A stretch of DNA of 62,494 nucleotides from Convolutriloba macropyga. Lineage: Eukaryota. The DNA is taken from contig NC_134474.1 in assembly GCF_964194025.1 (NCBI RefSeq), forward strand, positions 72,231,507 through 72,294,000, in the 5' to 3' direction. A program made the position numbers and the translations under genes. The notes below the pieces were generated by a model that worked only from the letters and a program-made list of their open reading frames with translations, was not told the origin of the DNA and searched no databases. Positions 23,540-61,129 of the stretch are shown piece after piece. Position 1 is the first letter of the stretch, and every line of letters begins with the position of its first letter.

Positions 23540-25960
23540 AATTTTTTTTTGAACTTTCTGAAATTGTGTCTAATTATCACATCTCAATTTTCCAGGAAGT
23601 CCTAAATCAGAAAACACAAAACCAGCTAGATGTGTTACTAACCAATAACCCAAACATTGTCACCACGAAGACCAGGAACAATGAATTCAATAAGAGTTTT
23701 AAATCTGACCACGACGCTTTTATAACTACCCTACAAATTGAGAAAACGAGAACGATTGACACGTAACATAAAAAATACGCATTTAGCAAAGATGACTGGA
23801 AAGACCTGAACTCATGCATAGAGAAAAACCCATTTAATCCCTACTGCTACAGCAGCGTAGATCAATTAGTAATTCAATGGTACAAATGGCTAGACAAAGT
23901 TCTTAGCGAAAATGTCCCAAAAACAACAACCCACAGATCAAACTTAGCTCCTTGGGTAAGCAAAGATTCGTCCCACCTTATTAAAATAATATCAACCTTA
24001 AAACGAAAAACATCAAAGAAATCCACCTTGGCGAGATTAATAAAACTGAAGAAAAAGGAAAAACGATTAAGAAATTCCTTGAATGAGGACCAAGCAGAAT
24101 TCGAAAGTAAAGTCTTTCAAGGTAGACGTTTTTCGGATCTTCAAAAATATCTCAAGTCAAGTCATAAAAGTAGTAGATACCCGGAAACAATAAAGTACAA
24201 GGATGCACAAACTAATGAAGATAAGAAAAAATGTGCGTTTTTCAGTGAACTCTTTTCTAAGTTTTCCTTAAAACCAATCAAATCAAGAAAACCTCCTTCG
24301 ATAAACATCAGCACAATAAAATTGAAATGGAAGAGAGTAAGATCAAAGAAATCCTGTCAAAACTTCAACCAAACAAAGCCTGCGGCCCAAACAGGATAGG
24401 AAATACGGTACTATAAAATCTGCCAGCCTTGTCTAAATCCCTTTTTCTGATTTTCAAAACTGCCTTGAACAAAGGCTTTTTCCCATCCTACTGGAAAATC
24501 AGTGAAGTTGTACCAATATTTAAGGATGAGAATCGGGCACTGATTGAACAATACCGCCCTATTAGTCTCTTATGTAGCGTCTCAAAAGTATTAGAAAAAC
24601 TAATTTTCGACGAACTATATGAAATTGTCAAGACAAAGCTAGAAGAATCACAACACGGATTTAGAAGGCATTGATAAGTAGTAACACAGATGTTGCTTTT
24701 CCTAGACCTGTTGTATAATGAATTCGACGAAAAAGACAACGAAATTTTTGTACTTTACCTTGACTTCAAAAAAGCGTTCGATACAGTTCCTCACGATCTT
24801 CTGATTAACAAAGTGGAGAACCTGGGTGTAGGGGGAAATTTCTTAAAGATTGTAGCCAGTTACCTATCAAATAGAAAACAATACGTGAAAGTAAATGACT
24901 CGGAATCTGAAACTGTACCAGTAACCAGTGGTGTCCCCCAAGGATCTCTCCTAGGCCCCCTACTTTTCATAATATATATAAACGATCTTCCACAACAAAC
25001 ATCAAAATGCTCTGCGTTTGGATACGCAGATGATTTCAAGCTTGTATCAACAAATCCAGCAAATATACAAAGTGACCTGGAAAAAATCGAAAAATGGTGC
25101 CATAACAACAAAATGCAACTCAATGAAAGCAAATGTCACATCCTGCCGATTAAAGTAAACGAAAAAAACTGGCACTCCTTTATACTAAACTCTAAACCTC
25201 TCTCAAATAAAAGCGAGCAAAAAGATCTAGGTATAATTATGGCTACTAAGTTATCATGGAAAGCGAATATAAAGAAACGTTGTAGCAAAGCCTGGAAAGC
25301 GTTTTGTTTCCTAAAACGAAACATATCAAACCTTGCATCGCAAACAACAAAACTCAATGCATATGTCGGCTACGTTATACCAGTCATAAGTTATGCCTCA
25401 CAAGCATGGTTCGCGAATAAGACCGAAAGCAAAGACATCGAGCGCATTCAAAGAAAAGCAACGTCGTGGATAGTCAGTAACTGGGAAATTAGTTACAAGC
25501 AAAGACTGACCACACTGAAGTTGCTGCGTTTGTCATATTACTTTGAATTGCTTGATCTGTTAATGCTCATCTCACTGCTTAAAGGATCTTACAATACAAA
25601 AATACCCATTAAAACAAACAATAATGAAGGGTTGTTAAGCACACGTCAAAACGAGCTAATACCAATTAATAAAACAAGAACAAGGAAGGCTGATGGAAAC
25701 TTCTGGAAAAGAACCAGTTATTTACTTAATATAATACGAAAAGTAGGGAACGTCGATCTCGATCAAATTGATAAGAAATACTTAACAAAAATATACTGGA
25801 ACTACTTCTTCAAAAGTTATTCGGAAGTCAACTTATGTTCCTGGGCTTTCAACTGCAGCTGTGGACATTGTAACCCGGTGCAGAAGCTCAGCTCAGTCGT
25901 TATATGAAGGGTGCAAACCCATGTGGAAAGACCCACAGAAGCCTAAACTCTCTCTCTCTG
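23540..25960 (+). mobile_element. 5'-truncated CR1/L2-group LINE (APE endonuclease C-terminus plus RT) with a (TC)n tail
   Basis: QLDVLLTNNP...KSDH (APE). PSYWKISEVVPIFK, YRPISLLCSVSKVLEK, QHGFR, YLDFKKAFDTVPH, SGVPQGSLLGPLLF and YADD (RT). C-terminal CSW...CSCGHC; CTCTCTCTCTCT at ~25948-25959. Only a few stops and frameshifts. Confidence 0.9.
24690..25907 (+). CDS. LINE reverse transcriptase ORF2 fragment (405 aa, interrupted upstream)
   Basis: Open frame with the non-LTR RT motifs DFKKAFD, GVPQGS and YADD. Confidence 0.85.
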   Translation: MLLFLDLLYNEFDEKDNEIFVLYLDFKKAFDTVPHDLLINKVENLGVGGNFLKIVASYLSNRKQYVKVNDSESETVPVTSGVPQGSLLGPLLFIIYINDLPQQTSKCSAFGYADDFKLVSTNPANIQSDLEKIEKWCHNNKMQLNESKCHILPIKVNEKNWHSFILNSKPLSNKSEQKDLGIIMATKLSWKANIKKRCSKAWKAFCFLKRNISNLASQTTKLNAYVGYVIPVISYASQAWFANKTESKDIERIQRKATSWIVSNWEISYKQRLTTLKLLRLSYYFELLDLLMLISLLKGSYNTKIPIKTNNNEGLLSTRQNELIPINKTRTRKADGNFWKRTSYLLNIIRKVGNVDLDQIDKKYLTKIYWNYFFKSYSEVNLCSWAFNCSCGHCNPVQKLSSVVI

Positions 25961-27299
25961 TCTTGAAATCGGGCTGTTTAGTCAGATAATACGTGCTGAT
26001 ATTATTGCTTAAATGCCCACATGGTAAAGATATTTGGCACCATAATGAGCTAAATGTGAATTTAGTCGAATGTGAACCGGAGGTTTGAATGCAAATAGTT
26101 AACAGATACCAACAAACATTTCTGAGGATCTGCTTTTACCGTATGCATTATATCATCATTGTCATATACTAGAAACATTTACATTCCCTTAGAGCTGTGG
26201 TCATTGTTGAAGCTTTCCCCACATAACAAACACGACCGGAAAAAGTATTCATCAGTTCAAATTGGTTGCTTATTCTCAACTTCTTTGGACCGTGCCGTAA
26301 CTCGGAGCTCACAATTGCCTTAGATATTCAACTTTAAAATAACTAAAATCTTTCCACCACTCTGAAGCTCACTTTTATGCATTGGGGAATGCAGAGCGCC
26401 GAGGTGGTCTCCTTTCATAAAAAATTTGGGATCAGCAATAGTGTAGGCAGTGAAACTCAATATTAATATTAAGGTATATACCTGTTTTGTGACCTGCATA
26501 TTTTACACCTGTTTATATGTGACTACTGTCAATATTTATACTTGTATATAGCAGTTGATTTGCTGCCCCCAAGTTGATCGACTACCCTCTTAGGGGAGGG
26601 GCTTTCTTTCAATCGGATAGTTTTGGATTAAACGAAGAAAATTTGTTGAAATTTTTTATTGAATAACAAATTGTTCGCGACCCGTATAAAATTTTTCTGG
26701 CTATATCAGTATTCTTAGATTTATATTTTACCTTTTAGTACACGTGATGCAACTGAACCGGTATGGTGACAAAACATTTATAAACAGAACTGTCTTGGCC
26801 ATTCAACGCTCGAGCTGGTTTCATACGCAATCAAGGGGTGCTAAAATAGAACATAAATAATGTTGTAATGTTAATGCAATTATGGCGACAGTTCGCTCAA
26901 TTTATTGGTAACTTTCTAGATTCATGGGATGGAGTTAGTTGCAGTCCAATTGTTTGTTGATAGTTGAAACAAACAAGAATACAAACAATCATTTGAATGT
27001 TATAATATTGACAGATTCACTTGACAATGGCAGCTGCTGTGCATAGAAGGCAAGCGAGAAATGAAAGTGAGTAATTGTTTTTTCATTACTAATTAAAGCA
27101 GAATTGAATGCTCCTGGATTAGATGATGTATAGATACAATATAAAGTATTATAAAATGAAGGGCTTATAACCTCAACTTTTATGTAACTGCAATATGACA
27201 TCAAATATTTTCCATGAAAAACTGCTTGGGTAACGTTTTTCGCCCTTCAAAAAACTATCAAGAGATTCTTACAAGCCAATGTATGAAAAGCAAATTTCC

Positions 27300-27475
27300 A
27301 AGCTCTCTTCTCACAAATTTCCAAGCCAATTTCTCTCTCTCCTCTCTCTTTAAGTTAACCTCTAATGACATCATCTGATGAAAAGGCCAGACTGGATATA
27401 AAAGCTTGTGGGAGAACAGATTTGGAATGACATTCTTCGAGTCCAAAGTTTTCAATCTCCAAAGTTTTCAATGGA
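27300..27475 (+). pseudogene. CRE-clade-like non-LTR retrotransposon, restriction-like endonuclease region, left part (split by the Polinton)
   Basis: TSSDEKARLDIKACG / WENRFGMTFFESKVFN matches the AR.D+.A.G.W.....FFDV+V pattern. Confidence 0.65.
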
Positions 27476-28915
27476 AGTAGTATATCGTGAGCAAGAGTGG
27501 GGGGGGGGGTAAAAGGAAGTACCTATGTATTAAGATTAGGTATAGCCCATTTTCGCTCAAATTGCAAGGAAGTACCTCACAGCATGATACCCGAGCTGTT
27601 CACACGAGGGGGATTAGCAAGTTAATCCCTTAATATTAAATTAGGTCATTTACTCATTCGCATATTGCACTTTATTAATGTAAATTTTCAAAGACGTACC
27701 TCACAGCATGACACCCAAGCTGTTCTCTCAAAGGGGATTAGTTAGGTAATGTTTTAATATTAAATTAGATAGGGTGACTCATTTACACTTGCGTACGGTT
27801 TACTAGATTTTCAAAAGTGTACCTCACAGCATGATAACCAAGCTGTTCACAAGAAGGGGATTAGCAAGACAGTGCCTTAACAAATTAGTAAGGACATTGA
27901 CCCACTACCATATTACAGTTTACTAATGTAAGTTTACAAAGACGTACCTCACAGCATAACACCCAAGCTGTTCACACTAAACGGATTAGCAAGACAGTGC
28001 CTTAAAAACGAATCAGTAAGGTCATTTACCCTTTCCCATATTACACTTTACTAATGTAAATTTCCAAAGATGTACCTCACAGCGTGACACCCAAGCTGTT
28101 CACACGAGGGGCATTAGCAAGTTAATCCCTTAATATTAAATTAGGTCATTTACTCATTCCCATATTGCACTTTAATAATGTAAATTTTCAAAGACGTACC
28201 TCACAGCATGACACCCAAGCTGTTCTCTCAAAGGGGATTAGTTAGGTAATGTTTTGATATTAAATTAGATAGGGTGACTCATTTACACTTACGTACGGTT
28301 TACTAGATTTCCAAAAAACGTACCTCACAGCATGATACCCACGCTGTTCACACGAAGGGGATTAGTAAGATAGTGCCTTAACACCAAATCAGTCAGGTCA
28401 TTGACCCCCTACCATATTACAGTTTACTAATGTAAATTTTCAAAAGTGTACCTCACAGCATGATACCCACGCTGTTCACACGAAGGGGATTAGCAAGATA
28501 GTGCCTTAACAACAAATCAGTAAGGTCATTGACCCCTTACCATTTTACACTTTAATAATGTAAATTTCCAAAAACGTACCTCACAGCATGATACCCACGC
28601 GGTTCACACGAAGGGGATTAGCAAGATAGTGACTTAACAGCAAATCAGTCAGGTCATTGACCCCCTACCATATTACACTTTACTAATGTCAATTTCCAAA
28701 TACGTACCTCACAGCTTTATACCCAAGCTGTTCACACGAAAGGGATTAGCAGGATAATGTTTTAATATTAATTTAGGTAGGATGACTCATTTACAGTTAC
28801 GTACGTTAGACGTGATTATCAAAAATGTACCGCACAGCATGATACCCAAGCTGTTCACACGAAAGGGATTAGCAAGATAATCCCTCAATAACAAATTAGA
28901 TTGGCTTGCTCATAT
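27476..28915 (+). repeat. Left TIR: unique ~95-bp end plus 11 tandem units of 123-128 bp
   Basis: Core GTACCTCACAGCATGATACCCAAGCTGTTCACACGAAGGGGATTAGCAAG starts at 27572, 27696, 27819, 27944, 28072, 28196, 28320, 28448, 28576, 28704 and 28827. Confidence 0.95.
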
Positions 28916-28924
28916 ATTAGCCTC

Positions 28925-29560
28925 TACTCCTATTCATTATTTCAATCAACTTCTAAAAATCAGTTGGTCAAAATTCTCGTTTAATTTATCATTTTTTTCA
29001 GATAGTCTTTGTTTCTTTCTCCTTGCAGCAAGAAGAGTTTCAAGTTGAACACTTGCAGTGTTGAAGCAGGTAAGCAAACAATTTCAACTAATAGAAATTT
29101 TCCTTTGTTCCTGTATTTAAACTGGACCATTTTAGCCAGCCAAAATATCCCCAAATAGTAGATATTGCATCACATCACATCGCTTCCAAGTCCAAAATAA
29201 AACTGGTAAGTTTGCTTTTATTAGGACACTACTCCTATTCCCAAGCCACTACTCCCATTCATTTTTTCAAACAACTTCTAAAAATCAGTTGATCAAAATT
29301 ATAGTTTAATTTATCTTTTTTTTCAGATAGTCTTTGTTTCTTTCTCCTTGTTGCCAGTTTCAAGTTGAACACTTGCAGTGTTGAAGCGGGTAAGCAAATA
29401 AATTTAATTAATAGAAATTTTCCTTTGCTCCTGTATTTAAACTGGACCATTTTAGCCAGCCAGAACTTCCCCCTATAGTAGATAATACAACACTTCACTT
29501 CAGCTTTAAATCCAAAAAAAAAAACTGGTAAGTTTACTTTTATTAAAACATGTTTTTGAG
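28925..29560. repeat. Tandem duplication of ~325 bp inside the Polinton
   Basis: TACTCCYATTCATT...CAACTTCTAAAAATCAGTTG...TTTCAAGTTGAACACTTGCAGTGTTGAAGC...AAACTGGTAAGTTT occurs at ~28925 and ~29250. Confidence 0.85.
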
Positions 29561-29689
29561 GAAGGAATATATACCCAATTATTGAAATAAAAAAAACCAT
29601 TGAAAATCATAAAATTCTCACATGATTAGGCAATTAGTCACTATTTTATAGTCAAAATTAATCATAACATCACAATAACATCATAACAC

Positions 29690-29926
29690 GTCACAATTAC
29701 GTCATAGTGTCGTCAAAATGACGTCATTTTGTCGTCAAAATTACGTAATTCTGTCGTCATAATTACGTCATTTTTTCGTCACAATTACGCCATTATGTCG
29801 TCACAATTACGTCATTATGTCGTCACAATTACGTCTTTATGTCTTTATAATTACGTCTTTTCGTCGTCACAATTTCGTCATTATGTCGTTATAGTTACGT
29901 CATTTTGTCGTCGCAATTACGTCATA
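29690..29926. promoter_or_regulatory. 22-bp minisatellite (~11 units) of CRE/ATF-like sites upstream of polB
   Basis: Unit GTCGTCACAATTACGTCATTAT, with TGACGTCA at 29719, TTACGTAA at 29741 and TTACGTCA in several units. A regulatory role is inferred. Confidence 0.7.
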
Positions 29927-30111
29927 TTTGATAAAGGACTTTTCATTTACGTTTTATTTTTCTGATTTACAGAATTCAGTGCTGTGGAGTACAATAATCA
30001 TTCCAACTTCTGACAAATTTTTATTCCATCGCAACTTTCATTTTAACAATTTTTTTTTACTCCTCCTTTCTCACTTCCAATCTTACATTTTATTTTTTAT
30101 TTTCAGCGAAA

Positions 30112-33100
30112 ATGCCCAGAAATTCTAACCCAAAGGAACAGTGTTCTTCCTGCAAGAAGCTTATAATGAAATCCAATATGAGCAGACATCAGAAGCTTCA
30201 CGCAAAAAGATGTTCACAATGCTCACAGTCATTTCCGGACGAAGCAAAATTGCAGAAACACATTGCTTCTGTACATGCACCGTCTCTGATTATCAAGAAA
30301 AAATTTTCTTGTAGCAGCTGTCCCTTATCCTTCTCTACTTATTATCAACTTCTACATCACAAACGAAACAGTCACCAGCGTTCAACACCTAGCACCTACG
30401 AGGAAGTTGACTTATCTATCTATGGAGACTCTCCCGCTCTTCATAGTGAACTTCAAACGGTTCAACATTTTCTGAGAGACTCGGTTCTTGAATTGTCCAG
30501 AAAGAAAGTTCACAACTTCAAAATAATGGAGATCAACCATGAAACAGTGATCGACAAATTGGATTGTGTTTACAACGAGTTACCCAGTTCAGCTAAAATC
30601 AATATTTCGTTTGGATTCGTGCTGCAGAGTGTGCAAAATCCTGACGAATTTCGCTACTACTACGCAGCAGATAACAACCCCGTATTCTCAAATCCCATGG
30701 TTCTCTCTGATGACACAGATCTCAATTATATTAAATCAATGTTGAGACAAGATGAATTTTTACCAAATCTAATTAATCAACGTCCAGACACAAAGTGGAA
30801 GTTTTATTGTGTTACAAATGTCACTTTCTTTGTATTTCTCCTCAGTGGTGTTCCGCTAGGATGCATAGAACAATCAATTCCATCAACCTTACTGAGGAGT
30901 CCAATAGTTAAATGTTTTGTATCTGACTGCGAAAACAAACCTTATCAAGACAATTTGTGTATGTTTCGTTCCTTGGCCTATGAATTATATGGTAGCAATG
31001 AGCTACAACAAAAAACAATGGAATTGATGCAGATGTTTCTCTCAGCAACAAGGAGAAATGACGAAACGTTTCAAGGAATACATGAAGACGATATTCCTGT
31101 TCTTGAGGTTCTAATTGACAGAAATATTCAGATTTACTCCATTTTTTTTTATGAAGAATCGGAAATGTTTGCTGAGCTTACTCGTCGCTCCTCGATGAAA
31201 CGTTCAAAGACAACTTCGTTACTGAGATATGAAAATCACATTTGTTGGACAGCAGACATCAACAAGTTCCTCAAAAAGTTCCGATGCTACGTATGCGATC
31301 AATTTTTCGACAGATCCTTCAACTTATTGCGGCACATGCAAAACTGCTCAGAAAACACGCAACACAAATATCCAACAGGAGCCTATCAGTTATCTGAAAC
31401 TATTTTTGAACGTCTGGAAGATGTAAATATTAATGTTCCGCAAGAGCTGAGATTGTTTTCTCATCTTATCGTATTCGATTTTGAGTCAATAACAGTCCCC
31501 GACAGTACACTCAAAAACACAGATTTGACTTCATGGATTGGAAAACATGTCCCCATTAGTGTGTCAATATCCTCGAATCTGCTCTCCGAACCAATTTTTA
31601 TTTGCAACGAAGATCCGCTTCAACTAATCCGTGATTTTGTATCCAGCTTGAGTAGTATAGCGGAAAAGAGCACGCTTCTAATGAGGGAGAAACTCGATGA
31701 TTTCGTACTGGTATTGGAAGAAAAATATTGGGCTCTTCGACAACTGGTTCCAGTGAAAGACAAGCAGGTACCCACCGGAGCGGAAGACTTATTTGAGAAC
31801 GAAGCTGAACCCGAGGTGGAGGCAGACGAAGATCTTGAAATTAGGAGACTGAGAAGCGAGCTCAGGGTGATATCAAAATTGAGACAAGATTTTGAAAATT
31901 ATTACAGTACCATACCTGTTTTCGGATTCAACAGCTCTCGGTATGATTTAAACCTAATAAAAGAGTATCTTCTGCATCACCTCTTATTAGAAAAAAACGT
32001 TATTCCTAAAGTGATTCGAATGGGGAATAAATATATTGGCATGAATTTTCTTGGTCTACAATTTCTGGACATTTTAAACTTCCTGGGAGGAGCGACAACT
32101 TTGGATAATTTCCTAAAAGCCTATGGAGCGAGTGAAGAGAAAGGTTTTTTCCCCTATGAATGGTTCGACAGTATTGAGAAGTTGAATGTATCCCAACTGC
32201 CACCAATTGACAGCTTTTGGAGCAAGTTGAAGAATCACAACGTTCTTTCAGTCGATTACGATAAGTTTGTGGAATTGAAAAACGGTGGAATGGAGCAGGA
32301 TGAAATTTCGAAGAAGTTGAGACTCAAGAAAGTTCCACAAAATGCCGAAGAAAATTACTTGGAGCTCCAAAATATATGGGAAAGAAAAGGTATGCAGACG
32401 TTTCGTGACTTCCTCATGTGGTACAATAACAAAGATGTCGAACCTACACTTGAGGCTATGAAGAAAATGATCAGTTTTTACCACTCAAGACAAGTAGACA
32501 TGTTGAAGTTGGGCTACACTCTTCCCAACTTGGCAAACAGGTTCCTTCATTCGTCAACAGATGCAGCTTTTTTTCCGTTTTGTGAGAAGGATAAAGAATA
32601 TGATAATTACATTCGAAAGTGGCTAACAGGGGGACCCTCAATTATCTTTACAAGGTATGCGAAAGTTGGTGAAACAAAAATTCGAGAGTCAGAAAACGTT
32701 TGCAAGTCCATCGTCGGAATAGATGCCAGTCAGTTGTACCCTTTTTCCATGACAAAAGAGATGCCAACAGGGCCCTATACAAAGTGGGAGTACAATGAAG
32801 AGACTGAAAAATTTCATCCGAACAGGAACTGGAGAAGCTACTTTGAACAGCAGGTCATGGACTACTTCCAACAGGTTCACCCCAATTGTAAAATACAAAC
32901 CCAGTTCACACACAAGAAACAAAAGAAGCTCGGTCCGTATTTAGTTGATGGGTTTTGTAACCATTGCAACACGGTTTTTGAAGCGATGGGATGCTTCTTT
33001 CATTTTTGTCCGTGTCAAGAGGAAAAACCGCTTCTCTTCGAGGACATTGAAAGCGGATTGAAGCGGAGAGAACGTGACAATGATAGAAGAGAGTACCTGA

Positions 33101-33606
33101 AGGGATTGGGGTTGAACGTTGAAGAGATCTGGGAGTGTCAATGGAAGAAATGGAGGAGCGAAAACACAAATGGGGTTAAAGACTTTCTCAAGTCAAATTA
33201 TCCCTTCCAACCAGCGATGAACAAGCACTCGCTCATTGAGAAAATTAAACGTGGAGAACTGTTTGGTGTCGTCGATTGTAGACTTGAAGTCCCAGAGGAA
33301 ATGAATCCTTACTTTGAAGACTTTCCTCCAATTTTCAAGAATTGTGAAGTGGGACGAGATGATATTGGGGACCATATGAAAGAGTTTGCAGAACGCAACA
33401 AATTACTATCCAGACCCAGAAAAATGCTCATTTCCAGTTTCAAGCTTGAACGAGGACCAGTTATTACACCACTTTTGTTATTTTATCTAGAAAAAGGTGT
33501 GATCCTAAAAGACGTCTTTTGGTTTCTTCAATACACTCCCCGACGCTGCTTTGAGACATTTGTTCAGAATGTTGTCGATGCCCGACGGTTTCCTCTGGGA
33601 TGCTGA
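30112..33606 (+). CDS. polB: Polinton protein-primed DNA polymerase B polyprotein, C-terminally truncated
   Basis: N-terminal C2H2 zinc fingers; vOTU-like DNLCMFRSLA...YENHICW; ExoI VFDFES, ExoII GFNSSRYDL, ExoIII YNNKDV; motif A GIDASQLYP; VSR-like insert VDGFC...EAMGCFFH...IWECQW. Ends after VDARR, before motif B (KxxxNxxYG) and motif C (DTDS). Confidence 0.93.
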   Translation: MPRNSNPKEQCSSCKKLIMKSNMSRHQKLHAKRCSQCSQSFPDEAKLQKHIASVHAPSLIIKKKFSCSSCPLSFSTYYQLLHHKRNSHQRSTPSTYEEVDLSIYGDSPALHSELQTVQHFLRDSVLELSRKKVHNFKIMEINHETVIDKLDCVYNELPSSAKINISFGFVLQSVQNPDEFRYYYAADNNPVFSNPMVLSDDTDLNYIKSMLRQDEFLPNLINQRPDTKWKFYCVTNVTFFVFLLSGVPLGCIEQSIPSTLLRSPIVKCFVSDCENKPYQDNLCMFRSLAYELYGSNELQQKTMELMQMFLSATRRNDETFQGIHEDDIPVLEVLIDRNIQIYSIFFYEESEMFAELTRRSSMKRSKTTSLLRYENHICWTADINKFLKKFRCYVCDQFFDRSFNLLRHMQNCSENTQHKYPTGAYQLSETIFERLEDVNINVPQELRLFSHLIVFDFESITVPDSTLKNTDLTSWIGKHVPISVSISSNLLSEPIFICNEDPLQLIRDFVSSLSSIAEKSTLLMREKLDDFVLVLEEKYWALRQLVPVKDKQVPTGAEDLFENEAEPEVEADEDLEIRRLRSELRVISKLRQDFENYYSTIPVFGFNSSRYDLNLIKEYLLHHLLLEKNVIPKVIRMGNKYIGMNFLGLQFLDILNFLGGATTLDNFLKAYGASEEKGFFPYEWFDSIEKLNVSQLPPIDSFWSKLKNHNVLSVDYDKFVELKNGGMEQDEISKKLRLKKVPQNAEENYLELQNIWERKGMQTFRDFLMWYNNKDVEPTLEAMKKMISFYHSRQVDMLKLGYTLPNLANRFLHSSTDAAFFPFCEKDKEYDNYIRKWLTGGPSIIFTRYAKVGETKIRESENVCKSIVGIDASQLYPFSMTKEMPTGPYTKWEYNEETEKFHPNRNWRSYFEQQVMDYFQQVHPNCKIQTQFTHKKQKKLGPYLVDGFCNHCNTVFEAMGCFFHFCPCQEEKPLLFEDIESGLKRRERDNDRREYLKGLGLNVEEIWECQWKKWRSENTNGVKDFLKSNYPFQPAMNKHSLIEKIKRGELFGVVDCRLEVPEEMNPYFEDFPPIFKNCEVGRDDIGDHMKEFAERNKLLSRPRKMLISSFKLERGPVITPLLLFYLEKGVILKDVFWFLQYTPRRCFETFVQNVVDARRFPLGC

Positions 33607-33850
33607 TTTGAAACTTCCGGTTCCCGTATTCTTGAAAGGACCAACAGTTGTTTCTTCCATCGTGCTCCTCATTTGGTTTTGAGTCGGTGTTGTCTTTTTT
33701 ATCGTTGTTGTCTTTAAATAGAGAAAACATGCTCTCATTGTGGTAATCAAACTGTGGAGAGGGAACAACTGGTTTTCCTTTGTAATCTCGTTTGCGGATG
33801 GGAAAGGAGAATGGTTTTTTGGAGTTAGGAGAGACAGAGCTTTGATCCAT
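33588..33850 (-). CDS. Polinton accessory ORF, truncated by the internal deletion (the tracked ORF runs on into antisense polB)
   Basis: ATG at 33850 directly after a minus-strand TTCTCATTTCACAG acceptor-like site. The frame enters polB sequence at ~33588. Confidence 0.55.
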
Positions 33851-33979
33851 CTGTGAAATGAGAATGTGAAGTATGTAAAGTTTTTAAAGCAGAAAATTTG
33901 GGTCTACAAGGGTAACTGAATATTGAAATCGCAAAGAAACAAATGAATAAATTGTCTTCAAGAAAGGGGTTGATATCTT

Positions 33980-34170
33980 GAACCAATGAAATTTAAGTAA
34001 GAACGAGAACAGTAGCGAAAAATAAACTTCGTATCCAATGAGATGTTATAAAATAATTCGTAACCAATGAAAATAGAGCGTGCATCATGACGTAATAGTT
34101 ATGTCACTTCTATTTTTAGTAACATCACGTGATGCCAAAGATGAGTTTTATATATTTAGTCACGTGAGGG
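33980..34170. promoter_or_regulatory. Probable Pol II promoter of the minus-strand ORF (three CCAAT boxes, TGACGTAA, two CACGTG E-boxes)
   Basis: AACCAATGAA (~33982), ATCCAATGAG (~34033), AACCAATGAA (~34063), TGACGTAA (34088), TCACGTGA (~34125 and ~34160). Confidence 0.5.
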
Positions 34171-34204
34171 TGAATTTAGCGTCGAACAAAAGCGAGTTAT
34201 CTCA

Positions 34205-34786
34205 CTATTCTATTGGAGAACACTTATAGTTCGAGAAAGGAATATTTTGATGAGATGATTGAGTCTCTTCATTGTCAGTTTCCTGGATCGGAGGAAGAAT
34301 AAGGTCTTTGAAATCGGGCAGATTGAAGGCTTCTGGTTTTTTAGAAAATGAGTCAGCATGCTTGGAGAACATGTCTTCTACCCACCAAACACCGTAGTGA
34401 TTTATGTCACGAGAGTACGGGAACATAATTCCTTTGCTGTCTTTCAACGGGTGAAACCCTTGTTCTTTTCGAATTCTTTCAATGGTTTGAAAATAAGTTT
34501 GGAGAGAAAGCAATGAATTGTTGACTTTTTCTTCGGCTAGGTGGAGGTTATGATGTCTAGCTGCCTCTAAAGTTCTCCACAAATCCTTCGGAAGTGTCAA
34601 GCTAGTTGTCTGAGTTTTAATTGTTACTCTAGTGCAATCCACCTCAAAAGATAATTCCAAATTGTTATCGGTTACTACCGTTTTAAATATTGATGCTTCC
34701 GTGATAGGAGCGTAATCTAAATCTGAATGAAAAGTGGAAAGAAAAGATGTTGAAGGAAGTAAAGGAAGAATTGGAGTATTTTGCAT
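34205..34786 (-). CDS. Polinton accessory protein of unknown function (193 aa)
   Basis: Intact ATG-initiated ORF adjacent to the right TIR; no motif recognised. Confidence 0.65.
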   Translation of the reverse strand: MQNTPILPLLPSTSFLSTFHSDLDYAPITEASIFKTVVTDNNLELSFEVDCTRVTIKTQTTSLTLPKDLWRTLEAARHHNLHLAEEKVNNSLLSLQTYFQTIERIRKEQGFHPLKDSKGIMFPYSRDINHYGVWWVEDMFSKHADSFSKKPEAFNLPDFKDLILPPIQETDNEETQSSHQNIPFSNYKCSPIE

Positions 34787-35064
34787 TTTTTTTTAGGCTA
34801 CTGATGTTCAACCAAGACAAAAGACAAAATGAATCGTAAATGTTTTTCAGCATCAACATTCCAAAATCAGATCTGACAGATTATGTGATTGGTTAAAAAA
34901 AAATAAGAAATAGACATTTTCAAAACAATAATACAACTTTTTCTGAAATCGGAAAATTGGAACTTCAGTTTAAAACGACACAGTGAAACACTATTTTAAA
35001 CATAAAATTGATTAAAATTGTACAAAAATCTGTAAAAATCAAAAATAAAAAATTGTACTTTTTT

Positions 35065-36270
35065 GTTAATATGAGAATGGGTGGGTAAATGGCCTTATTA
35101 GTTTGTTGTTAAGACACTATCTTGCTAATCCCTTTAGTGTGAAGAGCTTGGGTATCATGCTGTGAGGTACGTTTTTGGAAATTTACTTTATTAAAGTCTA
35201 AAATGGTAGGGGGTCAATGACCTTACTGATTTGTTGTTAAGACACTGTCTTGCTAATCCCTTTAGTGTGAACAGCTTGGGTATCATGCTGTGCGGAACAT
35301 TTTTGAAAATCACGTAAGCCGTACATAACTGTGAGTCATCATATCTAATTTAATATTTGTACATTTTATAGCTAATCCCCTTCGTGTGAACAGCGTGGGT
35401 ATCATGCTGTGAGGTACGTTTTTGGAAATTTATTTTATTAAAGTCTAAAATGGTAGGGGGTCAATGACCTTACTGATTTGTTGTTAAGACACTGTCTTGC
35501 TAATCCCTTTAGTGTGAACAGCTTGGTTGTCATGCTGTGAGGTACACTTTTGAAAATTTACATTATTAAAGTGCAATATGGTAGGGGGTTAATGACCTTA
35601 CTGATTTGTTGTTAAGACACTGTCTCGCTAATCCCTTTAGTGTGAACAGCTTGGGTATCATGCTGTGCGGAACATTTTTGAAAATCACGTAAGCCGTACA
35701 TAACTGTGAGTCATCATATCTAATTTAATATTTGTACATTTTATAGCTAATCCCCTTCGTGTGAACAGCGTGGGTATCATGCTGTGAGGTACGTTTTTGG
35801 AAATTTATTTTATTAAAGTCTAAAATGGTAGGGGGTCAATGACCTTACTGATTTGTTGTTAAGACACTGTCTTGCTAATCCCTTTAGTGTGAACAGCTTG
35901 GTTGTCATGCTGTGAGGTACACTTTTGAAAATTTACATTATTAAAGTGCAATATGGTAGGGGGTCAATGACCTTACTGATTTGTTGTTAAGACACTGTCT
36001 CGCTAATCCCTTTAGTCTGAACAGCTTGGGTGTCATGCTGTGAGGTACGTCTTTGAAAATTTACATTATTAAAGTACAATTTGGGAATGAGTAAATGACC
36101 TAATTTAATATTAAGGGATTAACTTGCTAATCCCCCTCGTGTGAACAGCTTGGGTATCATGCTGTGAGGTACTTCCTTGGAATTTGAGCGAAAATGGGCT
36201 ATACCTAATCTTAATACATAGGTACTTCCTTTTACCCCCCCCCCCCCACTCTTGCTCACGTTATACTACT
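35065..36270 (-). repeat. Right TIR: unique end plus 9 tandem ~125-bp units, including a ~375-bp three-unit higher-order duplication
   Basis: The reverse-complement core CTTGCTAATCCC...GTGAACAGC.TGGGTATCATGCTGTG(A/C)GG occurs nine times; 35221-35595 is nearly identical to 35596-35970. Confidence 0.95.
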
Positions 36271-36560
36271 AATGGACCATACAATTACCCTGAGAAAATC
36301 AAGACACTTAAATATGAGTAGAGAGTAGTGGAAGTCAAACACAGTTTCTCACCGCCGATCGTTGCATGCACAGGAGGCTCCGCCCCGTCGTATTAAGAAA
36401 TAACTCTCCTCGAAAGGACGAGAGCTACGTACGCGCTATGAACTATATACGAACGGCTGCCAGCTTTGCGGCAATGAGAAGCTGCAACCGTGCCCGAGTC
36501 CCGCAAAAGCCGATCGCTAGTAGATAACTCGTGCGAGGGCGTCCTGTCAGAAGGACGTTT
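36271..36560 (+). pseudogene. CRE-clade-like non-LTR retrotransposon, right part (continuation of 27300-27475)
   Basis: YNYPEKIKTLKYE*RVVEVKHSFSPPIVACTGGSAP...KDESYVRAMNYIRTAASFAAMRS matches the HE..K...Y..R+.+VE..SF.PL+...GG...R..+SF.L.RS C-terminus. Confidence 0.65.
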
Positions 36561-36941
36561 TAATTTGCTCTGAATCCGTGATTACACGAAGACAAGTTAA
36601 GCTATTCTTCGCTGACTATTGTGCTACTGTTAATTATAATTAATTAATGCTTTCGTGACCCCGCTAACTTAGTTATTTCAGGGTAATTGTTTTTCAGTCG
36701 GTTTATGATTTTTAATTGCTCTGGAACGAAGATTGAAGTAATTATTGTAAACGTGTTGGTCTTTTCTTTATGCAAAATTTTCGCCTGACCATTTTTGTGC
36801 TTTTGTTCTAGAGCATTCTGTGACTTCTCTAGTGACATTTTCAAGCTTCACTTCTTTAATTAGAGTGATTTCAATAGCTCGCATTCTGAAATGAAGTTTG
36901 TTGCTAATATAAAAGTGGTTGTTAGCGGCAAGTAATAACGT

Positions 36942-37013
36942 GGTTGTAGCCGAGTGGTTAAGATGTCGGACTATTGTTCTGGATGTTGCGGGTGTTACCA
37001 GTCTTGACTACCA
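36942..37013 (+). pseudogene. tRNA-like sequence (tRNA pseudogene or tRNA-derived SINE head)
   Basis: A-box TAGCCGAGTGG in GTAGCCGAGTGGTTAAG; anticodon-like stem TCGGA-N7-TCTGG; degenerate B box; ends in CTACCA. Confidence 0.45.
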
Positions 37014-37279
37014 GTGGCCCATTTGTGCGCCTCAATTTCCTATCCCTTGGACTAATTGTTGCAATGAGTTTTGCATCTTAATGCAATGCAAATTATAGCG
37101 CTGATGAAGCGACCCTTTCTCGTAGATAAACAGTAAGTTACTGTTAAATGGTTCTGGTAGATGAATAGCGAGATTTTGATTAATATTAAGTCCAAGAATT
37201 ATCCTTTTGGCATGCTTCCTTTCGCAAAACATGGTGGTTTAATTGGTAAGTGATCAATGCTCCAGGCAAATCAAAAATT

Positions 37280-38090
37280 TCCGTTTCATTTTTCCAGTAA
37301 TTAGTTTTTGAAGTCTGTGGAGTCAAGCTTCTGGCGAGGAACACCTCTTGGCAAAGTTCTAAGCGATAGAGAACGGTTGATTGCACTGTCATTAACTCAA
37401 ATGCGTGTTGTAAATGCCGTAGTTTTTATTTAATAAATTTTCATGTGCTGCAGGAAAAGGTTTACTGCAGCCCTGCAGTTTATTGAATTTGGGCGCCATC
37501 TTGTTAATTCGTCACGATAACGATTATTTATTCATAAATAACGATCGTAATCCACTATGATCCTCAGTAAAAATCAACAATGCTACTCGGACTGGTTAAC
37601 AGTCTAGATTGAAAACAAGGAGGCTCGGTAATGTGCGTTTTGCACATTAAGTTCCGACCCCGCTCATCCACTTTTTTGGCATAATTGTCTACCAAATGAG
37701 GAACAGACAGAACCCCCGCCGCCAAAAAAGTTCAAGTATTTTTCAAAAATTGGTGCATGAACAAAAATATCGCCTCCAACGCAAATACTTCAGTGGAGTA
37801 AAAAAATGCCACATTAGATTGATGAGATCTGCAGTTATTAAGAAAGCCAAGCAAGACGAACTACAAAATCAAACAACATTATTTACATCCAAAACTTTGT
37901 CCCTTTTTTTTCCAAAACAAAACCTAATGACAAAGACAAGATAGCGTCAGATAAAACTGAAAATGAACTAAGTAACTTGTACTTTACTAGAAAAGATATG
38001 GGACCAGTCCATAATAGGGCTCGGTTACAAATAGACAAAAATCAGCAAAGTTAATAAATTCGCTTACCTTTTTCAAAACAATTAATTTCA
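37280..38090 (+). pseudogene. Possible hAT transposase relic
   Basis: Scattered fragments NTSWQS / ERLIA (TRW.S...ERL-like), EPPPPKKFK, DEICSY and NRARL...NKFAYLFQN-like terminus. Heavily decayed. Confidence 0.35.
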
Positions 38091-40888: not shown

Positions 40889-43800
40889 GAAAAGGAAGCC
40901 CGCTTGTCTCGCCAGCTGAATCCCTGGAGCAGTTGAATGTGAATCCTTTCACAGAGAAAGATGCTGAAGATATTTTCAATCCTTTCGCGAATGACGACGA
41001 ACACGAAGATCGATGTTCACATTCGGAACCACTCGTGAGTGAACACGTGGACCAATCAGTTGAACAAAATAACCCCTTCGATGAAGAATCTGCTGTTGAT
41101 GAAGCAACCAGCAACAACAACAATCTTCTGGGTTCGTGGACTGAGTTGGAAGTGTCCAGAAGTGACACTATCAGAGAGCGATTTCCGAACCCGATGACCA
41201 TCGAGCAACTGAATACCCAATTTAACCCTTTAGGGTTGCAAGCTTTTACTGAACTTGTTGATCAGTTTATTGTCTCGAAAGGCAACGCAGAACAATCGGA
41301 ATTGTGGACGTTAGTGCTCGAGCATTACAACTCGCGAAACGAGTATGTGAAAACGTGGGGGAAGTTACAAGATGTCAAGTCAACAGTGGAAACTTTCACA
41401 AAATCTTTCTGGATATTCTCAACAAAAGTTTTAAAAAATGTGCAGACATGCCGAGACGGAAGAAATGTCACTTTAGAGCACGAATATGAATACGCAGATT
41501 TCAGTGAGACATCTTTCAAAGCCTTCAATGATCTCTGGGAAACGATGAAAATGACCTTGACAGTGAAACTAAGTAGAGCTAAATTTGAAAATCAGTTGAC
41601 CTGGGTCAAAATTGAGAAGTACCTCAACAAATTTCTGGTATCGTTTGTCGGGTTTGAAAGACCAGACCTGAATTCCAACAAAGCGACCTTTAGGTTTGCT
41701 CCTCATCACTCAAAAGCTGTTACTGAAATGCACCAAGTATTAAACGTTCTTTTTACGTTTTTGAGAAAGCCAAGACCGGACGATAGATTTATATCTGAAA
41801 TCATTCGCTGGATTCACAAATGCAGTGCTGTGTTTCTGCGCTGTGCAACCCTGTTCGATCATATAATGATTCTAAATAATGCTCTCAGATTACCGGCTAG
41901 CATTTACGTGGATGAGATATTCATGTTAGTTCACTTGCCCCAGTTTTCCTCAATTTCAAATCAAGTATCGGAGCCGACAGTCGTGTCTCTTGATCACACC
42001 TTGTTGATCTCCAAGATCATGATGAGTGGTGTTCCGCAGAGATCTGTGTTCCTCAAAGAATTAGAAAAGACGCCCGATGTGGGAATGAATGCGGACAATG
42101 ACGGGAAGTGTAACTGGATTCTGTTGGATGACAGTGGCGAGGAATCCGAGTGTCCAGACGCTAACTGGCATCTTTTTGACGAATCGAACATACTGGGTTT
42201 TATAGAACGTCTGCCGTTTGAAAAGATCTTATCAAATCTGTCGGCTGTTATGAATAACAAAACTATCTTCCTGCAAAGTATTGCTTATTTTAACCATTTA
42301 CTTATACCCTTTGGTGATTGCTTTGAGACGTACAATTTGGACCGCTATGCTTTATTGCGCAAACGAGTCGCAAGTTACTGTGTCGCGTTGACTAATTTTT
42401 CCATCAATTCATATTTAGTCAAATTTTCGGAACACGACGAATATAATTCCGATGAACACAAGATACTGAAATTAGAAGTGGAAGCGCTGCTGTTAAGATC
42501 ATTCTCCTTGCTGGCGAGAAATATGAATGACAAGAGTGTATATCCTGCCATTCAGAACTTCAATTTTGCTTTTCTCTCACCAAACTCGGCCTGGAAGCTC
42601 ACTTACATTCTAATCGGACCTCAAGATTGCGTCAACGTGGAGGAGTTGTCACAGTACGACACTGATCCAAAAGATCTCTTTCTAGATGGTCTGAACAGCT
42701 TTGGAGGTCTTGATTACAAACTACAGAACTGTTTCTTTGTGTCTGGGGCTGCGTTGCTGTCGACTTTGTCAAATATGATCATCGACGGAAGTTTCTCAGA
42801 TCAGGAACTGATGATTGTGGTTATGAACGCACTCTTTTACATATCATACATAAGTCCCCAGCATAAAGAGAACTACTTCAAGTTTGGGCACAACCTCATC
42901 TCGTGTCTTCTGACGTCACACTTGGAGTTGGTGACCTTTTACCTGAACAAAATCAACAGAAATTGGGAAAAGATGCTCTCAGATATCAACATGAGCTTCC
43001 TTCTGGAAGTCAGTTTGGATCAATGGGTTCCGACAGCCTCCGATATTGAGTTGTTATTGCATTGGTTGGAGTTCTATGACATACAGCATTCGTTAAATAT
43101 TCTCGCGCGCAAAATTTTGTCATACATAGACTGGCTTCTAGTCGATGAATCTGGTAGTCCGACGATACCGACTGATCAACAGAATCGAGTGCTCAACACG
43201 ATTCTTCATATTTACTCGACTGTGGTTATAAAGTCAGAAGTTCACGATGTTCCGTTTGAGGTCAAATGCGCAAAAGATTTTGAGTCGTCGCCGACAGGAT
43301 TTACGAACCCCGTACAAAACTTCGCAGCGTGGTGTTGGAAAATGGTGACAATAATGCAAGTTAAAGGCAACGTTCTAGCAATGAAAGACGAAGAACTGAA
43401 AAGTGAAACTAAAATTACACAAAACGGACATTACTTGATAATGTTTGCAGCTTTGCTAAGTAGCGACTCCTCTAAGCACGTGTTCAGTTTGTCAAACGGA
43501 GGGTTGAATATGCTCAAGCAATTGACCATGGGAGGGTTCATAAAGCCAGTGGTTCACGTTCTGGACTCGAAGCTTAAATTTGAGTTATCAAATCTGGACG
43601 TCCTATTTCTTCAGAAAGGCTGTTTCGCCGAGATTTTGGCTAATATTTGTCAAGGAGATAGCTCCATTTCGCACAAAATGGGAATCGTAGTCCAAGCAGG
43701 AGCTAACACGTTACTTCTCTCCGCCATGCTCGTTTCTTTACTTCAGTCTGTGGAATCGAGTAATAAACTGCACTCAAAATACCTCATGGAGTTTTTACTA

Positions 43801-46800
43801 TCAGTCATTCTGTCTTACCCAAACTTTGCCTCAAATTACTACCTCCTCTATATACTAGAACAGCTTTGTTACTTTTCCTTCACCTCCAAATCTCTGAGCG
43901 AGTGTGTCAGAATTACGTTTTTGAGACACTTGGAAGAATTGCAGAAACATGACCACTCTAAGACTTTCCGAATATTTGCAACGCATAAATATTTCACGAC
44001 ATTGCATTGTTTCAAAACGTACGCCGAGTTCGGTTTTGTTTCGTACTTTTCGCTGGTTGCCCAAATCAACTTTGAAGATCAAAATGGTGTTTGGAGTCCG
44101 CTGATTGAGAAAATGCAGGACAGTGTACAAAATACGCCAGGAGCCTTCTTGAAAGACCTCCGACTGGATGACAAATGGTCATCGTGTACCTTTTCGGAGA
44201 CATCGCTGAGTATCTATCTCATCGTAGATGTCTTGATGCTAATTGACTGCAGCCATCCAGCCTTTCCTTTAATTGCTCAGCTCTTTTTCGCCAGATATTT
44301 TTTTAGACCTGATTTATCTGCACGTGATTTGACACCCAACTCCTCCAATAGCGTCGGTGAACGTTTTTTCGCCAGTTACTACTACATGGGTACCATCAAG
44401 AAGCTTAAACTGAGATTCGAAGAAGCTGCCAAAGTAAGAAGAAAGCCTGAAATTGAACCAAATGACGGCGATGAAGAGAACCCGACCAATGATATGGACG
44501 CTGTGATGCTTGGTTCATCGTCGTATGATTTGAAAGTCCAGTCTGGCAAAGAAGGCATTTCCAAACATTTAGACGCGTTTTACCTCTGGGCTGATGAACC
44601 CAGGCTGCACACGACGACTGTTGTGTTTGAGAATCTACCAGCCAATTACCTACCACAAAGTATAATTGACGTGATTACAAGAGGAACGAAGCCCCTTGAC
44701 CTGTTTGCATCTGAAATCCAAACCGACGATGTTGTCATTAATTGCATGAAGATATGGCATGACGAACTGTATTCCTATCTGAAAAAACCGGTGGTCATTG
44801 TTGAGAATTTTGACTTTTCAGTCGAGGCATCAAAGTTCAGAGTCGAACGTGCGAAAAGTAAATTCGTGTATCATCATCGAGATCTGCCTGAGGTCAAACC
44901 GTCCGAAATTCCATTGAGTTCCGTCGATTCTCAACTGTTAATATCAAACCGAAGCCTGTTAGAATATTTCGGGAAATCGTTCAACGAGCTAACTGCCTAC
45001 GCCCAGAAGCAAGTTGCGTTATGGAAAGAACTAAATTCCGACTTTGATAAATTTTCAAAATTGACTCCTCAACAGTACGAGAACAAAGTTACAACACTTC
45101 AGAAAGTTGTGAATTGTGAAAGTTTGCTTCAAAGGCAGCGCTGTACTGGTCCTGTAGTTTTCGATTTAACTTACAACTGTAAGTCGGAGAACCTGGCTGT
45201 GAGTTTCGAACTTGACCGGATCTGGAAGAAAATCATGGAATCCGTCTCGACAAGTCCTGAATGTCCTTTGGAATCAGTAAATGCTGTCGAGATTATGGAA
45301 GAGATTGTTCACGGCCTGATCGAACTAGCTGAGTCACAAAACAATACCACTGTTGACCAACATATGTCAACAAAGGGAGTGGTAGAAAACAACGGAATCG
45401 ATCTGTTTTTCCTAATAGCTAACATCTTATCTGAGGATGTAATGTCTTATCCTCCATTCAGAAAAATGACAGAAATTCTTTTTACTCTGCTTGGAACTAA
45501 ATTCATTGCGACATCTGGTGATAGCCAAACACAGCTGCTGGATTTGTTGCTTACCAAACCATTCTTGGTCGAAAGTTTGAACTCTTATTTCTGCCCTGAA
45601 CTGGCGCACGGGAAGTTCTGTGCGTTTTATCAGAAATTGTCGGTTAGGATAATTGCCAATTTCGACAAAGCACACTCGGAGTTGCTGCTTACTAAGTTTG
45701 ACTTCGCAAGTTGGCTTTCCAAAACTAGCAATGCTGGTCTTAGGTCCACAGTTTTGGGCTGCGTCTTCGATTTACTTCATTTCATTGGCAAAGATGTAAC
45801 GGAAGATCTTGAATGGACATTCACAAGTGCGAGTGGACACGCTTTCTTGTTCCTCAACGATAATTTTGTTCTGGAGTTTCCGTCGTTTTTCCTAAGCATG
45901 CTAAAACTGTCGCTAGCGGGTAAAGCTAGTCCACAGTTGTGGGAGAATTTGACGGAATTTTGTGGTCTAAAAAATTTCTCACTCTCCATTGAGAGCCCGC
46001 AGCTAACTGGGAACCATTTTGATAACTGTCACAAATCTTTGGAATTGATCAGCATGTTCTCTTCTAGTGAATTTGTGTCGAACATTGCAAATTTTATCCA
46101 ACAAACGAGAATTACTAATTGGGACAACCCGCCCGTTAAACTTTTTGGACCCGACATAGAGCACGTAAGCAAATTTCTGATATTTCTATCCAAACTCATT
46201 ATATCATGCGGGCACTTCCAATGTTCAAACGGGCAAGTGTCAAAAAGTGACTTGTCACTTACAATTTGGAATCAACTTGTTCAGCTATTTTCGCCTTTTA
46301 TTGCTCCATTAATTCATGATGACAAACTTCAGCTTCCGAAACCGACTGTTGAGAGTGGAAATGGCTCCGATGGAGGTATCGACAAAGGTTTCGATCAATT
46401 ATGTCTCGCGTTTACTGTGTCAATTTTGGAAGCGTTGAAACAAGATGATTCTTACAGCGAAGGCGATTTTTCTTTGCCTTCTTATTTGCATCATTTTCTG
46501 ATGTACTTTAACGAGGTATTAACGCCCTCGAACAAATCCAATGCTATTATGAATCACTACTTCAATTCATTCCTAAATCTGCCCTGGTCCAGTTTCTTAC
46601 CCCATATTCAAAGTGTGGACATTTTGCTCGCTATAAGACAGCAACCCAATATCAACCCAAAAGATTTTGCGGTGCAGATATTTCTGAGTATTGATTGGAA
46701 ACGTTACTGCGATCTGCATGTCAAAATGCACACAGACGTAGCAAGTACTGCTTTACATCGATTCTTACTTCTGTCAGTGCTGCTGGAAACCGACGACGCG

Positions 46801-48126
46801 TTTACCGAGGAATCGGGTGCCCTTGTGGTAGGCAAACTGGACAAGATCCGGAACATAAACTGGACGAAACTCTCGCCGGAATACCTTACTATAGTGCTGT
46901 CTCTGTTTTTGAAGTTCTACTTCAAAAAACAGTCCTTGTCTTTGAGAAATCCATTCGGAAGCTTCCGTCTTCTGATGGAAGCAAGCGGGTTTGCGGTAAA
47001 ACCGACTGATGATTTTGAAACTGTGAGTCGCGATAGCTCATTCGACCACAAAATGACTTTTATGGACTTGGTTTCAACAAAAATCCAGAAAGTTACATCG
47101 GTGGAAACTTTATCCGAAGTAATTGAGTCATTGTTCACATACATCGGCACTAACCTGGATCCAATGTCAAGTTCAGCTTCTGCAATTTTGCATCTTATGA
47201 AACCGATTATCAAGCTTATCAATTCTGTACCGTTTGATCAACAAACAAGCAAAACCCTAGAAGGCTTTAGTAATTGGGCATTCAATTTGGACAACCACGA
47301 CTTCCTCCTTCTGGTAATTGTTGCATGTTGTCAAGATATGGCCAACAAGGAGGCGTTGGCTTACTTCCTTGAAACTGCCTGCGAAGCGTACTTCAAACCA
47401 ACAACTGGTGTTGTGAGGTCCTGGGAATCAGTATCGAACAGCATGGAATTGCCTTACACTGGTCGAGCCGAGTTCCTTGCTACTTGCTCCAAGAAATGTT
47501 TCTATTTTGTCCTTGAAATTCATCTCCGATCTCAATATATTTCAGATGAAGAATTTTTGAACCTCATTTTCACGTGGCTAAATGACTCAAAAGCGTTGAC
47601 TGCCGAAAACGAAGTTAAAGCGTTTCTTTTATTCACTCGGTGTTTTGAAAAACTCGAGAAATTGATGTTTGCTTCAAATGCAATGAAGTTTATAGAGCTC
47701 GCCCGGACTTTTATGACCTATTTGGGCGATTTGAGTGAAGATCGTGAAACGGGAGGATTGCGTGGAATGATAGGGTTGGGAGCAGCCTCTAAATTGAGCC
47801 AAGCGTTCCGCATTTGCTGTAAATGCATCTCGTGTTTCCTGCAACTCCAAATTGAATCGCTTCTGGCAGATCCTAACAAAGACACCAACATGGATTCCAG
47901 TTTGAATAAGTCTTCAAAGAAAGATCAGAGCGCTCAATCGATGCTTAAGTCACTGAAACAGTACACCGTGATTAAAGACTATCCCCATATAGCAGCCAAA
48001 TTGCAGGTTATCCTCAACTCGAATTTAGTGGAGGGGATATCAATGGATAACTGGAAAGAGCTCATGTTTAATCTGGTGTCTAGTTTCTATAATGAGGAAT
48101 ACGGACTAAAAGTTCTGACAAACTAG
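40889..48126 (+). CDS. EPG5: Ectopic P-granules autophagy protein 5 homolog; one ~7.2-kb coding exon, true N-terminus uncertain
   Basis: 2418-codon open frame. EPG5-like segments WIHKCSAVFLRCATLFDHIMILNNALRLP, WILLDDSGEESECPDANWHLFDE, AFYLWADEPRLH, FLNLPWSSFLP and EDRETGGLRGMIGLGAASKLSQAFR. The tracked start is TTG; acceptor-like TTATTTCAG ends at 40888; first in-frame ATG is at 41194. Confidence 0.88.
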
Positions 48127-57276: not shown

Positions 57277-57321
57277 TTTTCGAAAAATTCTTTTTTGATT
57301 ATTTCCCTAAACAAATAGATC

Positions 57322-60756: not shown

Positions 60757-60772
60757 TTTTTATAACAAATAA

Positions 60773-61093: not shown

Positions 61094-61129
61094 TTTTTAC
61101 TCTTATTATAATTTTTCAATACATATAAA

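Follow-up and report, generated by a model that had tools for sequence, protein, structure and literature searches.

AP-1 sites are spared while IR-1 elements change at background rate in the terminal arrays of a Polinton family in Convolutriloba macropyga

Introduction

A stretch of 62,494 nucleotides of the Convolutriloba macropyga genome (contig NC_134474.1, positions 72,231,507 to 72,294,000; hereafter the window) contains an internally deleted Polinton/Maverick element, both ends of which carry tandem arrays of 119-128 bp units. Each unit consists of a common ~46 bp core, with the dyad ACAGC-N11-GCTGT and the motif GGATTAG, and a class-specific linker; class B linkers contain the AP-1 site TGACTCA and class C linkers the inverted repeat AGGTCA-T-TGACCC, a nuclear-receptor element of the IR-1 type. 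Does the element retain these motifs as regulatory sites, or were they simply copied along with the unit? A first-pass annotation of the window had proposed that the arrays form a hormone- and stress-responsive enhancer, which couples Polinton activation to host signalling and could influence the neighbouring gene EPG5. Here we find that, across the family, AP-1 sites change less than their background whereas IR-1 elements change at the background rate, so that the AP-1 part of that proposal passes this test of conservation and its IR-1 part does not.

Results and discussion

Family ends were gathered by their terminus, and 24 further loci that came from IR-1 hits were flagged separately; as these loci were chosen through IR-1, the sample favours IR-1. 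Column tests covered 809 full units in 93 arrays from 51 elements (grouped by proximity), a sample of the family and not the whole of it, from which arrays of fewer than three units, terminal partial units and five unclassified units were excluded. The unit sets comprised 357 C/c units (255 of them terminus-selected), 153 class B units and 254 B-type units (B, b, F and G). Rates of change were base-normalised against background, ranked among shifts of the motif and assigned a P value by composition-matched permutation, the shift test, which keeps neighbouring columns together, being the more cautious one. Arrays in the family ranged from 5 to 31 units, and unit order was shuffled among copies.

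In these tests, the AP-1 site changed at 0.28 times the background rate in class B units and at 0.43 times in B-type units (ranking second and fifth among 71 shifts; permutation P 0.0003-0.0008). Of the 254 B-type units 236 retained it, and none of the 82 arrays was without it; among the 236 kept sites, 233 had R/Y flanks and five showed the centre swap TGAGTCA. Not one of 59 terminus-selected arrays lacked an AP-1 site, where 4.1 were expected to. Furthermore, AP-1 variants common to at least three elements were depleted (0.14 versus 1.03 expected), while private variants were not (1.29 versus 1.0), as selection acting while the family spread would be expected to produce. After exclusion of CpG columns and with a single unit per element, the signal was still present in class B (P 0.02-0.05) and in class F (P 0.008-0.009). 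CpG mutability was considered as a cause of the signal and rejected, the observed/expected CpG ratio of the window being 0.83 and the signal persisting without CpG columns.

The same test did not bear out the proposed hormone response, as IR-1 mutated like the adjacent linker bases. Its rate of change was 0.97 of background in the 357 C/c units and 1.01 in the 255 terminus-selected ones (ranking 31st and 40th among 74 shifts, with permutation P values of 0.26 and 0.34). The IR-1 spacer was no freer to change than the half-sites, whose G/C positions had 5-12 changes, the mean for G/C being ~9. Perfect IR-1 elements were present in 139 of 357 C/c units, and a proportion of 39-40% is the expectation for 12 sites at ~7% background divergence. 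Variants that break the element are common and shared (AGGACA, 47; TTTACCC, 19; TCGACCC, 15), class c units carry a perfect copy in only 2 of 63 cases, and 17 of 59 terminus-selected arrays have none (10.9 expected). Since the test detects AP-1 it has power, and its outcome counts against a function of IR-1, which is probably a neutral passenger of the unit.

We also examined the motifs as strings in the window copy. All seven predicted perfect RGGTCAnTGACCY elements were present, with no others in the window, as were all five predicted array copies of TGA(C/G)TCA, which occurs twice more within the element and five times outside it. However, the units were amplified in tandem and a motif occupies a single place within its unit, so copy number is not independent evidence; multimerisation was dropped as an argument, each motif having one origin per unit class. 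When one real A+B+C trio of units was dinucleotide-shuffled 20,000 times, a perfect IR-1 arose with a frequency of 5e-5, any canonical nuclear-receptor repeat with 0.011, AP-1 with 0.038, the extended form RTGASTCAY with 0.008 and GGATTA with 0.19. Among the array motifs, IR-1 alone is thus unusual as a string.

Within the core, GGATTA, which we take to be a K50 homeodomain site, had been described as present in nearly every unit, and it occurs in 19 of the 20 unit cores of the window copy and in 664 of 809 units of the sample. Its rate of change, 0.71, was not significantly low (rank 13 of 46; P 0.11-0.24). The dyad, the most conserved feature of the core, was found in 612 of 809 units, its spacer taking 61 different forms, and changed at a rate of 0.52-0.57 (rank 3-4 of 46; P 0.002-0.008 in four of five unit sets), although it did not reach significance in class B alone (P 0.14). 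Unusual hairpin folding of the units was ruled out in all four stretches analysed (z -1.9 to +1.4). The right array of the window copy is not a mirror of the left one, and left and right arrays also differ in several polymerase-bearing copies; class C units of the two ends of the window copy are 88-92% alike and closer to units of other elements. In some copies with unrelated interiors, unit order matches at both ends.

How old are the arrays? A sister family with 80-82% pPolB (protein-primed DNA polymerase B) identity shares a ~100 bp head of the terminal inverted repeat (TIR) with the window family. From terminus to pPolB, none of its nine left ends contained units, dyad, IR-1 or AP-1, and four stretches of its far ends, two of them reaching the TIR, gave no unit match. 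A 21 bp array of 6-31 copies stands in place of the 128 bp arrays in this family (L141-L149). Both families have a second array before pPolB, of period 22 and carrying TTACGTCA/TGACGTCA, presumably a CRE/PAR-type bZIP (basic leucine zipper) motif; the TTACGTCA array lies at the equivalent place in nine of nine sister-family copies. As these loci were picked by motif, per-column identity of the 22 bp array would be circular, and the argument here uses no more than its occurrence in both families. Thus, the 128 bp arrays are recent and dispensable, and bZIP-type motifs are an older theme. In more distant Polintons (54-59% identity), whose ends are not firmly placed, 11 upstream regions contained no IR-1 and no 128 bp array.

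These data suggest that the AP-1 arrays may serve as a host bZIP-driven enhancer for the element's own genes, similar to the homologous regions (hrs) of baculoviruses, with IR-1 carried along; reasoning from sequence, we hold this reading to be the most likely one, with about even confidence. AP-1 acts as a relay for stress and wound signalling; Jun and Fos bZIP domains are encoded in the host genome. Units would multiply and shuffle through unequal exchange, and selection during the spread of the family would retain an AP-1 unit, or more than one, at each end. When bound, bZIP dimers would increase transcription starting at promoters that face inward, with the older TTACGTCA array ahead of pPolB contributing, and the core dyad may bind a second dimer, possibly an element-encoded one. 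EPG5 would be a bystander whose intron 1 was struck by a defective copy. If so, the spared AP-1 motif points to a specific host input (Jun/Fos-type bZIP) on the activation of animal Polintons, and to convergence on the design of baculovirus hrs and of the adenovirus inverted terminal repeat (ITR).

Several observations weigh against this enhancer. The more cautious shift test gave P values of about 0.03-0.07 for AP-1, the conserved stretch runs a few bases to the left of TGACTCA, and AP-1 was not conserved in sub-class b (P 0.52-0.64). Most arrays begin A-B, which alone is enough to supply an AP-1 unit, and counts are not independent because units are related and recombine. In addition, the dyad was chosen post hoc, and the sister family has spread without 128 bp arrays.

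Polintons and host-factor sites in viral ends are already known. The TIR repeats of the transposon Galileo bind its transposase. Galileo/Foldback elements also have long, structurally dynamic and internally repetitive TIRs, but Galileo is a cut-and-paste transposon of the P-element superfamily (PMC3573991). The family studied here resembles animal Polintons/Mavericks in its (AGT)2//(ACT)2 ends, target-site duplications (TSDs) of 6 bp and pPolB, in the ATPase, integrase and protease-like open reading frames (ORFs) of longer copies, and in end repeats within the published TIR range of 46-1,500 bp; it differs in its modular, shuffled unit arrays, which may differ between left and right, and the window copy is deleted (PMC8097293, PMC10748475). 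The passages on Polintons in these two papers describe no regulatory motifs in TIRs, and a literature search, with supplements and most subscription journals outside its scope, found no report of regulatory motifs or arrays there. Baculovirus hrs, which act as enhancers and origins, likewise consist of tandem units with a palindromic core and have cAMP- and TPA-response elements (CRE/TRE; TGACTCA) between cores that recruit host bZIP factors (PMC13513840). However, hrs have ~72 bp units in which IE1 binds a 30 bp palindrome, and they lie scattered over a circular genome (PMC13513840), whereas the Polinton arrays have dyad arms of 5 bp and are subterminal; the likeness is one of analogy, drawn from sequence, and does not make the arrays hrs. 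The adenovirus ITR is also the end of a linear, protein-primed DNA with host-factor sites (NFI, NFIII/Oct-1, Sp1, ATF), but it is single, short (~137 bp) and carries ATF sites, in contrast to the kb-long, AP-1-bearing arrays described here (PMC5717082).

The alternative that survives best, though we consider it rather unlikely, is that the arrays are neutral, minisatellite-like expansions whose motifs are chance words of the founding monomers, the low AP-1 rate reflecting a cold stretch or shared ancestry. Consistent with this, 3.8% of the shuffles yield AP-1 and 19% GGATTA by chance, and in aligned units TGACTCA, TTACTCA and TGACCC(C/A) fall at about one place, 1-2 changes apart; the wide range of array lengths and the sister family without arrays fit as well. 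However, a low mutation rate would not yield a depletion of shared AP-1 variants that spares private ones, the AP-1 signal recurs in classes B and F and survives removal of CpG columns, and the second bZIP-type array persists in both families.

A less probable alternative, which we regard as doubtful, is that IR-1 functions as an NR1H/RXR element and, jointly with AP-1, confers a hormone/stress response, its weak conservation being due to unit redundancy and half-site tolerance. Natural FXR sites tolerate GGACA-type half-sites, although a literature check did not confirm this. The points in favour of this alternative also weigh against IR-1 as a passenger. Class C units most often carry IR-1 in its perfect form, with the low chance frequencies given above (~0.01 even for any nuclear-receptor repeat); IR-1 lies within one mismatch in 288 of 357 C/c units and in all 59 arrays; and three of 12 subsample tests were marginal (P 0.03-0.05). 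The host encodes an RXR-like DNA-binding domain (L033; best match RXR-alpha, E 1e-37) and an NR1H-like one (L047; best match FXR, then EcR, E 3e-23), each E value referring to the domain exon. As cognate domains for both motifs exist in the host, neither AP-1 nor IR-1 is excluded through missing proteins. The class C element has the exact AGGTCA-n-TGACCY geometry of the FXR/RXR and EcR/USP element, and IR-1 is the preferred site of FXR/RXR (PMC10242635), but the Polinton IR-1 is not conserved above background. Its background rate and a spacer no freer than the half-sites count against the hormone/stress response, as does the spread of class c after loss of the perfect element.

Perfect IR-1 elements number 1,097 genome-wide against 104 for the reversed control, a tenfold excess, and they occur in at least five repeat families, which is a further point in favour of a working receptor site. 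However, at least 275 of the 1,097 are the Polinton array unit, so that the excess is at least partly copy number, and one reversed control reached 343 (IR-0, 39 versus 343; IR-3, 61 versus 75). Among the first 50 sites, IR-1 was carried by at least four other repeat families (L065-L068, L073-L076, L079-L080, L179-L183): a SINE-like repeat (short interspersed nuclear element; so labelled on account of its tRNA-like box), a tandem repeat of ~1 kb, a repeat nested in a non-autonomous element and a repeat with GGTCATTGAC about every 28 bp.

Improbable as a full account, though compatible with the AP-1 enhancer, is the possibility that the arrays mainly load an element-encoded protein (e.g. through the C2H2 fingers of pPolB) for replication or end pairing, with a functional dyad and secondary linker motifs. 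The frequency of the dyad, its many spacers and its low rate of change agree with this, as do the C2H2 fingers on pPolB. Yet the dyad was picked post hoc, lacks significance in class B and is absent from all nine sister left ends, the units show no unusual folding, and the conservation of AP-1 is left unexplained. Very improbable, finally, is the broadest scheme, in which an hr-like enhancer would read both Jun/Fos and NR1H/RXR, unrelated IR-1 repeat families would exploit the same receptor pathway (a hormone/stress-gated mobilome) and the polymorphic copy 0.5 kb from exon 1 would alter expression of this autophagy gene. The genome-wide IR-1 excess across several repeat families keeps the hormone reading alive, with the limits of copy number and control given above.

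The insertion in EPG5

The element had been placed ~4.6 kb from EPG5, but it lies inside intron 1 of this gene (27067-40888), the identity of which was confirmed through homologues. A contig of run X5 that starts at the first base of the second exon has a 29-letter loose end identical to 27038-27066, with GTGAGT next in the genome. The exon join comes from one contig of one run; together with the splice signals TTATTTCAG and GTGAGT, and with the phase of exons 1 and 2, which fits the EPG5 frame, it places the Polinton in intron 1. Although run X5 bears the label 'DNA?', its behaviour is that of RNA, with the exon join, a poly(A) loose end and an exon depth of ~250 versus ~10. EPG5 is almost wholly encoded by its second exon (7.2 kb). 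The Polinton is 409 bp from the exon 1 donor, its left array ~0.5 kb and its first AP-1 site ~0.7 kb from exon 1, and EPG5 and pPolB have the same orientation. A reverse-transcriptase ORF fragment (24690-25907) lies ~1.1 kb upstream of exon 1.

Contigs of X1, X2 and X3 (one study) start exactly at the first base after the element, 36271, and the placed part of an X5 contig stops at the right TSD; the depth of the X1 contig is 40 at the element edge and 42 at the EPG5 exon. Contig starts at the element edge are expected of a graph branch between filled and empty alleles, which argues that the insertion is probably polymorphic. A search of the assembly for a second haplotype of the right flank gave one full match among six, at the window's own place alone. 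The pPolB DNA of the window copy is 99.8% identical to that of its closest copy over 3,469 bp, so the insertion is very young. That a young, segregating and deleted copy is involved argues against co-option, while its position in intron 1 makes an effect on EPG5 physically more plausible. Such an effect could come from enhancer activity or, as plausibly, from splice acceptors: by inspection, splicing of exon 1 (phase 1) to an acceptor-like site at 30106 would keep it in frame with the ATG of pPolB, so that a gene-trap effect would rival any enhancer effect. The young, probably polymorphic insertion thus provides a natural allele pair for host-gene effects.

Anatomy of the element and other features of the window

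Table 1. Coordinates of the Polinton, its motifs and the EPG5 exons within the window
Feature	Position	Strand	Remarks
EPG5 first coding exon	27027..27066	+	ATG 27027; 13 codons + 1 nt; donor GTGAGT from 27067
Left TSD AATGGA	27470..27475	+	
Internally deleted Polinton/Maverick	27476..36270	none	8,795 bp; AGTAGT...ACTACT ends; within EPG5 intron 1
Left TIR head	27476..27571	+	~96 bp; sole end part common to sister family
Left subterminal array	27572..28896	+	10 full units (A B c C A B C C C F) + final core
AP-1 TGACTCA, B linker	27775..27781, 28275..28281, 28783..28789	+	left array
Perfect IR-1 AGGTCA-T-TGACCC, C linker	28395..28407, 28523..28535, 28651..28663	+	
Two copies of ~320 bp repeat	28919..29545	+	splice-like signals inside
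22 bp x 10.8 array with TTACGTCA/TGACGTCA	29689..29925	+	upstream of pPolB
pPolB ORF, N-terminal C2H2 fingers	30112..33606	+	1,164 aa; cut short at deletion
Deletion junction	33584		1 nt microhomology
193 aa family ORF	34205..34786	-	no Pfam match
Right subterminal array	35083..36172	-	8 full units (A C C b C C b C) + terminal one
Perfect IR-1, right array	35211, 35458, 35833, 35961		
AP-1, right array	35332, 35707		
Right TIR head	36173..36270	-	
Right TSD AATGGA	36271..36276	+	
EPG5 second exon	40889..48126	+	acceptor TTATTTCAG before 40889; open frame to stop at 48126

The window copy has the AGTAGT//ACTACT TIR ends and the 6 bp TSD of a Polinton (Table 1), and of 12 further end pairs that were tried, 11 had matching 6 bp TSDs and the twelfth gave no result. 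An exact 27 bp probe from the TIR head occurs at 59 places in the genome. The pPolB ORF of the window copy matches zf-C2H2 alone in Pfam, and homologues at 50-56% identity carry PF03175. Compared with the closest copy, ~7.6 kb are absent, including the Pox_A32 ATPase, rve integrase and protease-like ORFs. With these genes lost, the window copy cannot be activated as an autonomous element. Longer family copies encode rve, Pox_A32 and a weak Peptidase_C5/C48 match (Pfam); their 267 and 412 aa ORFs, considered for the major and minor capsid proteins, gave no informative Pfam match. The ~320 bp repeats contain acceptor-like signals at 29001, 29028 and 29326 and donor-like signals at 29069 and 29389, and are possible 5' untranslated exons of pPolB.

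Elements at L091-L096 (C15, C2, C7; ~12.7 kb) have family ends and unrelated, partly duplicated interiors, the ORFs of which gave no informative Pfam match; they are non-autonomous passengers of the Polinton family. In the window copy, 33850-34200, upstream of the truncated minus-strand ORF, contains one TGACGTAA as well as two E-boxes of sequence TCACGTG, of which 0.03 were expected and which none of 500 shuffles reproduced. A second, unrelated and AT-rich Polinton-like element occupies 55031-62494, with an AGTAGT start, a ~120 bp fold-back and pPolB pieces at 58588-59772 (PF03175, Endonuclease_7).

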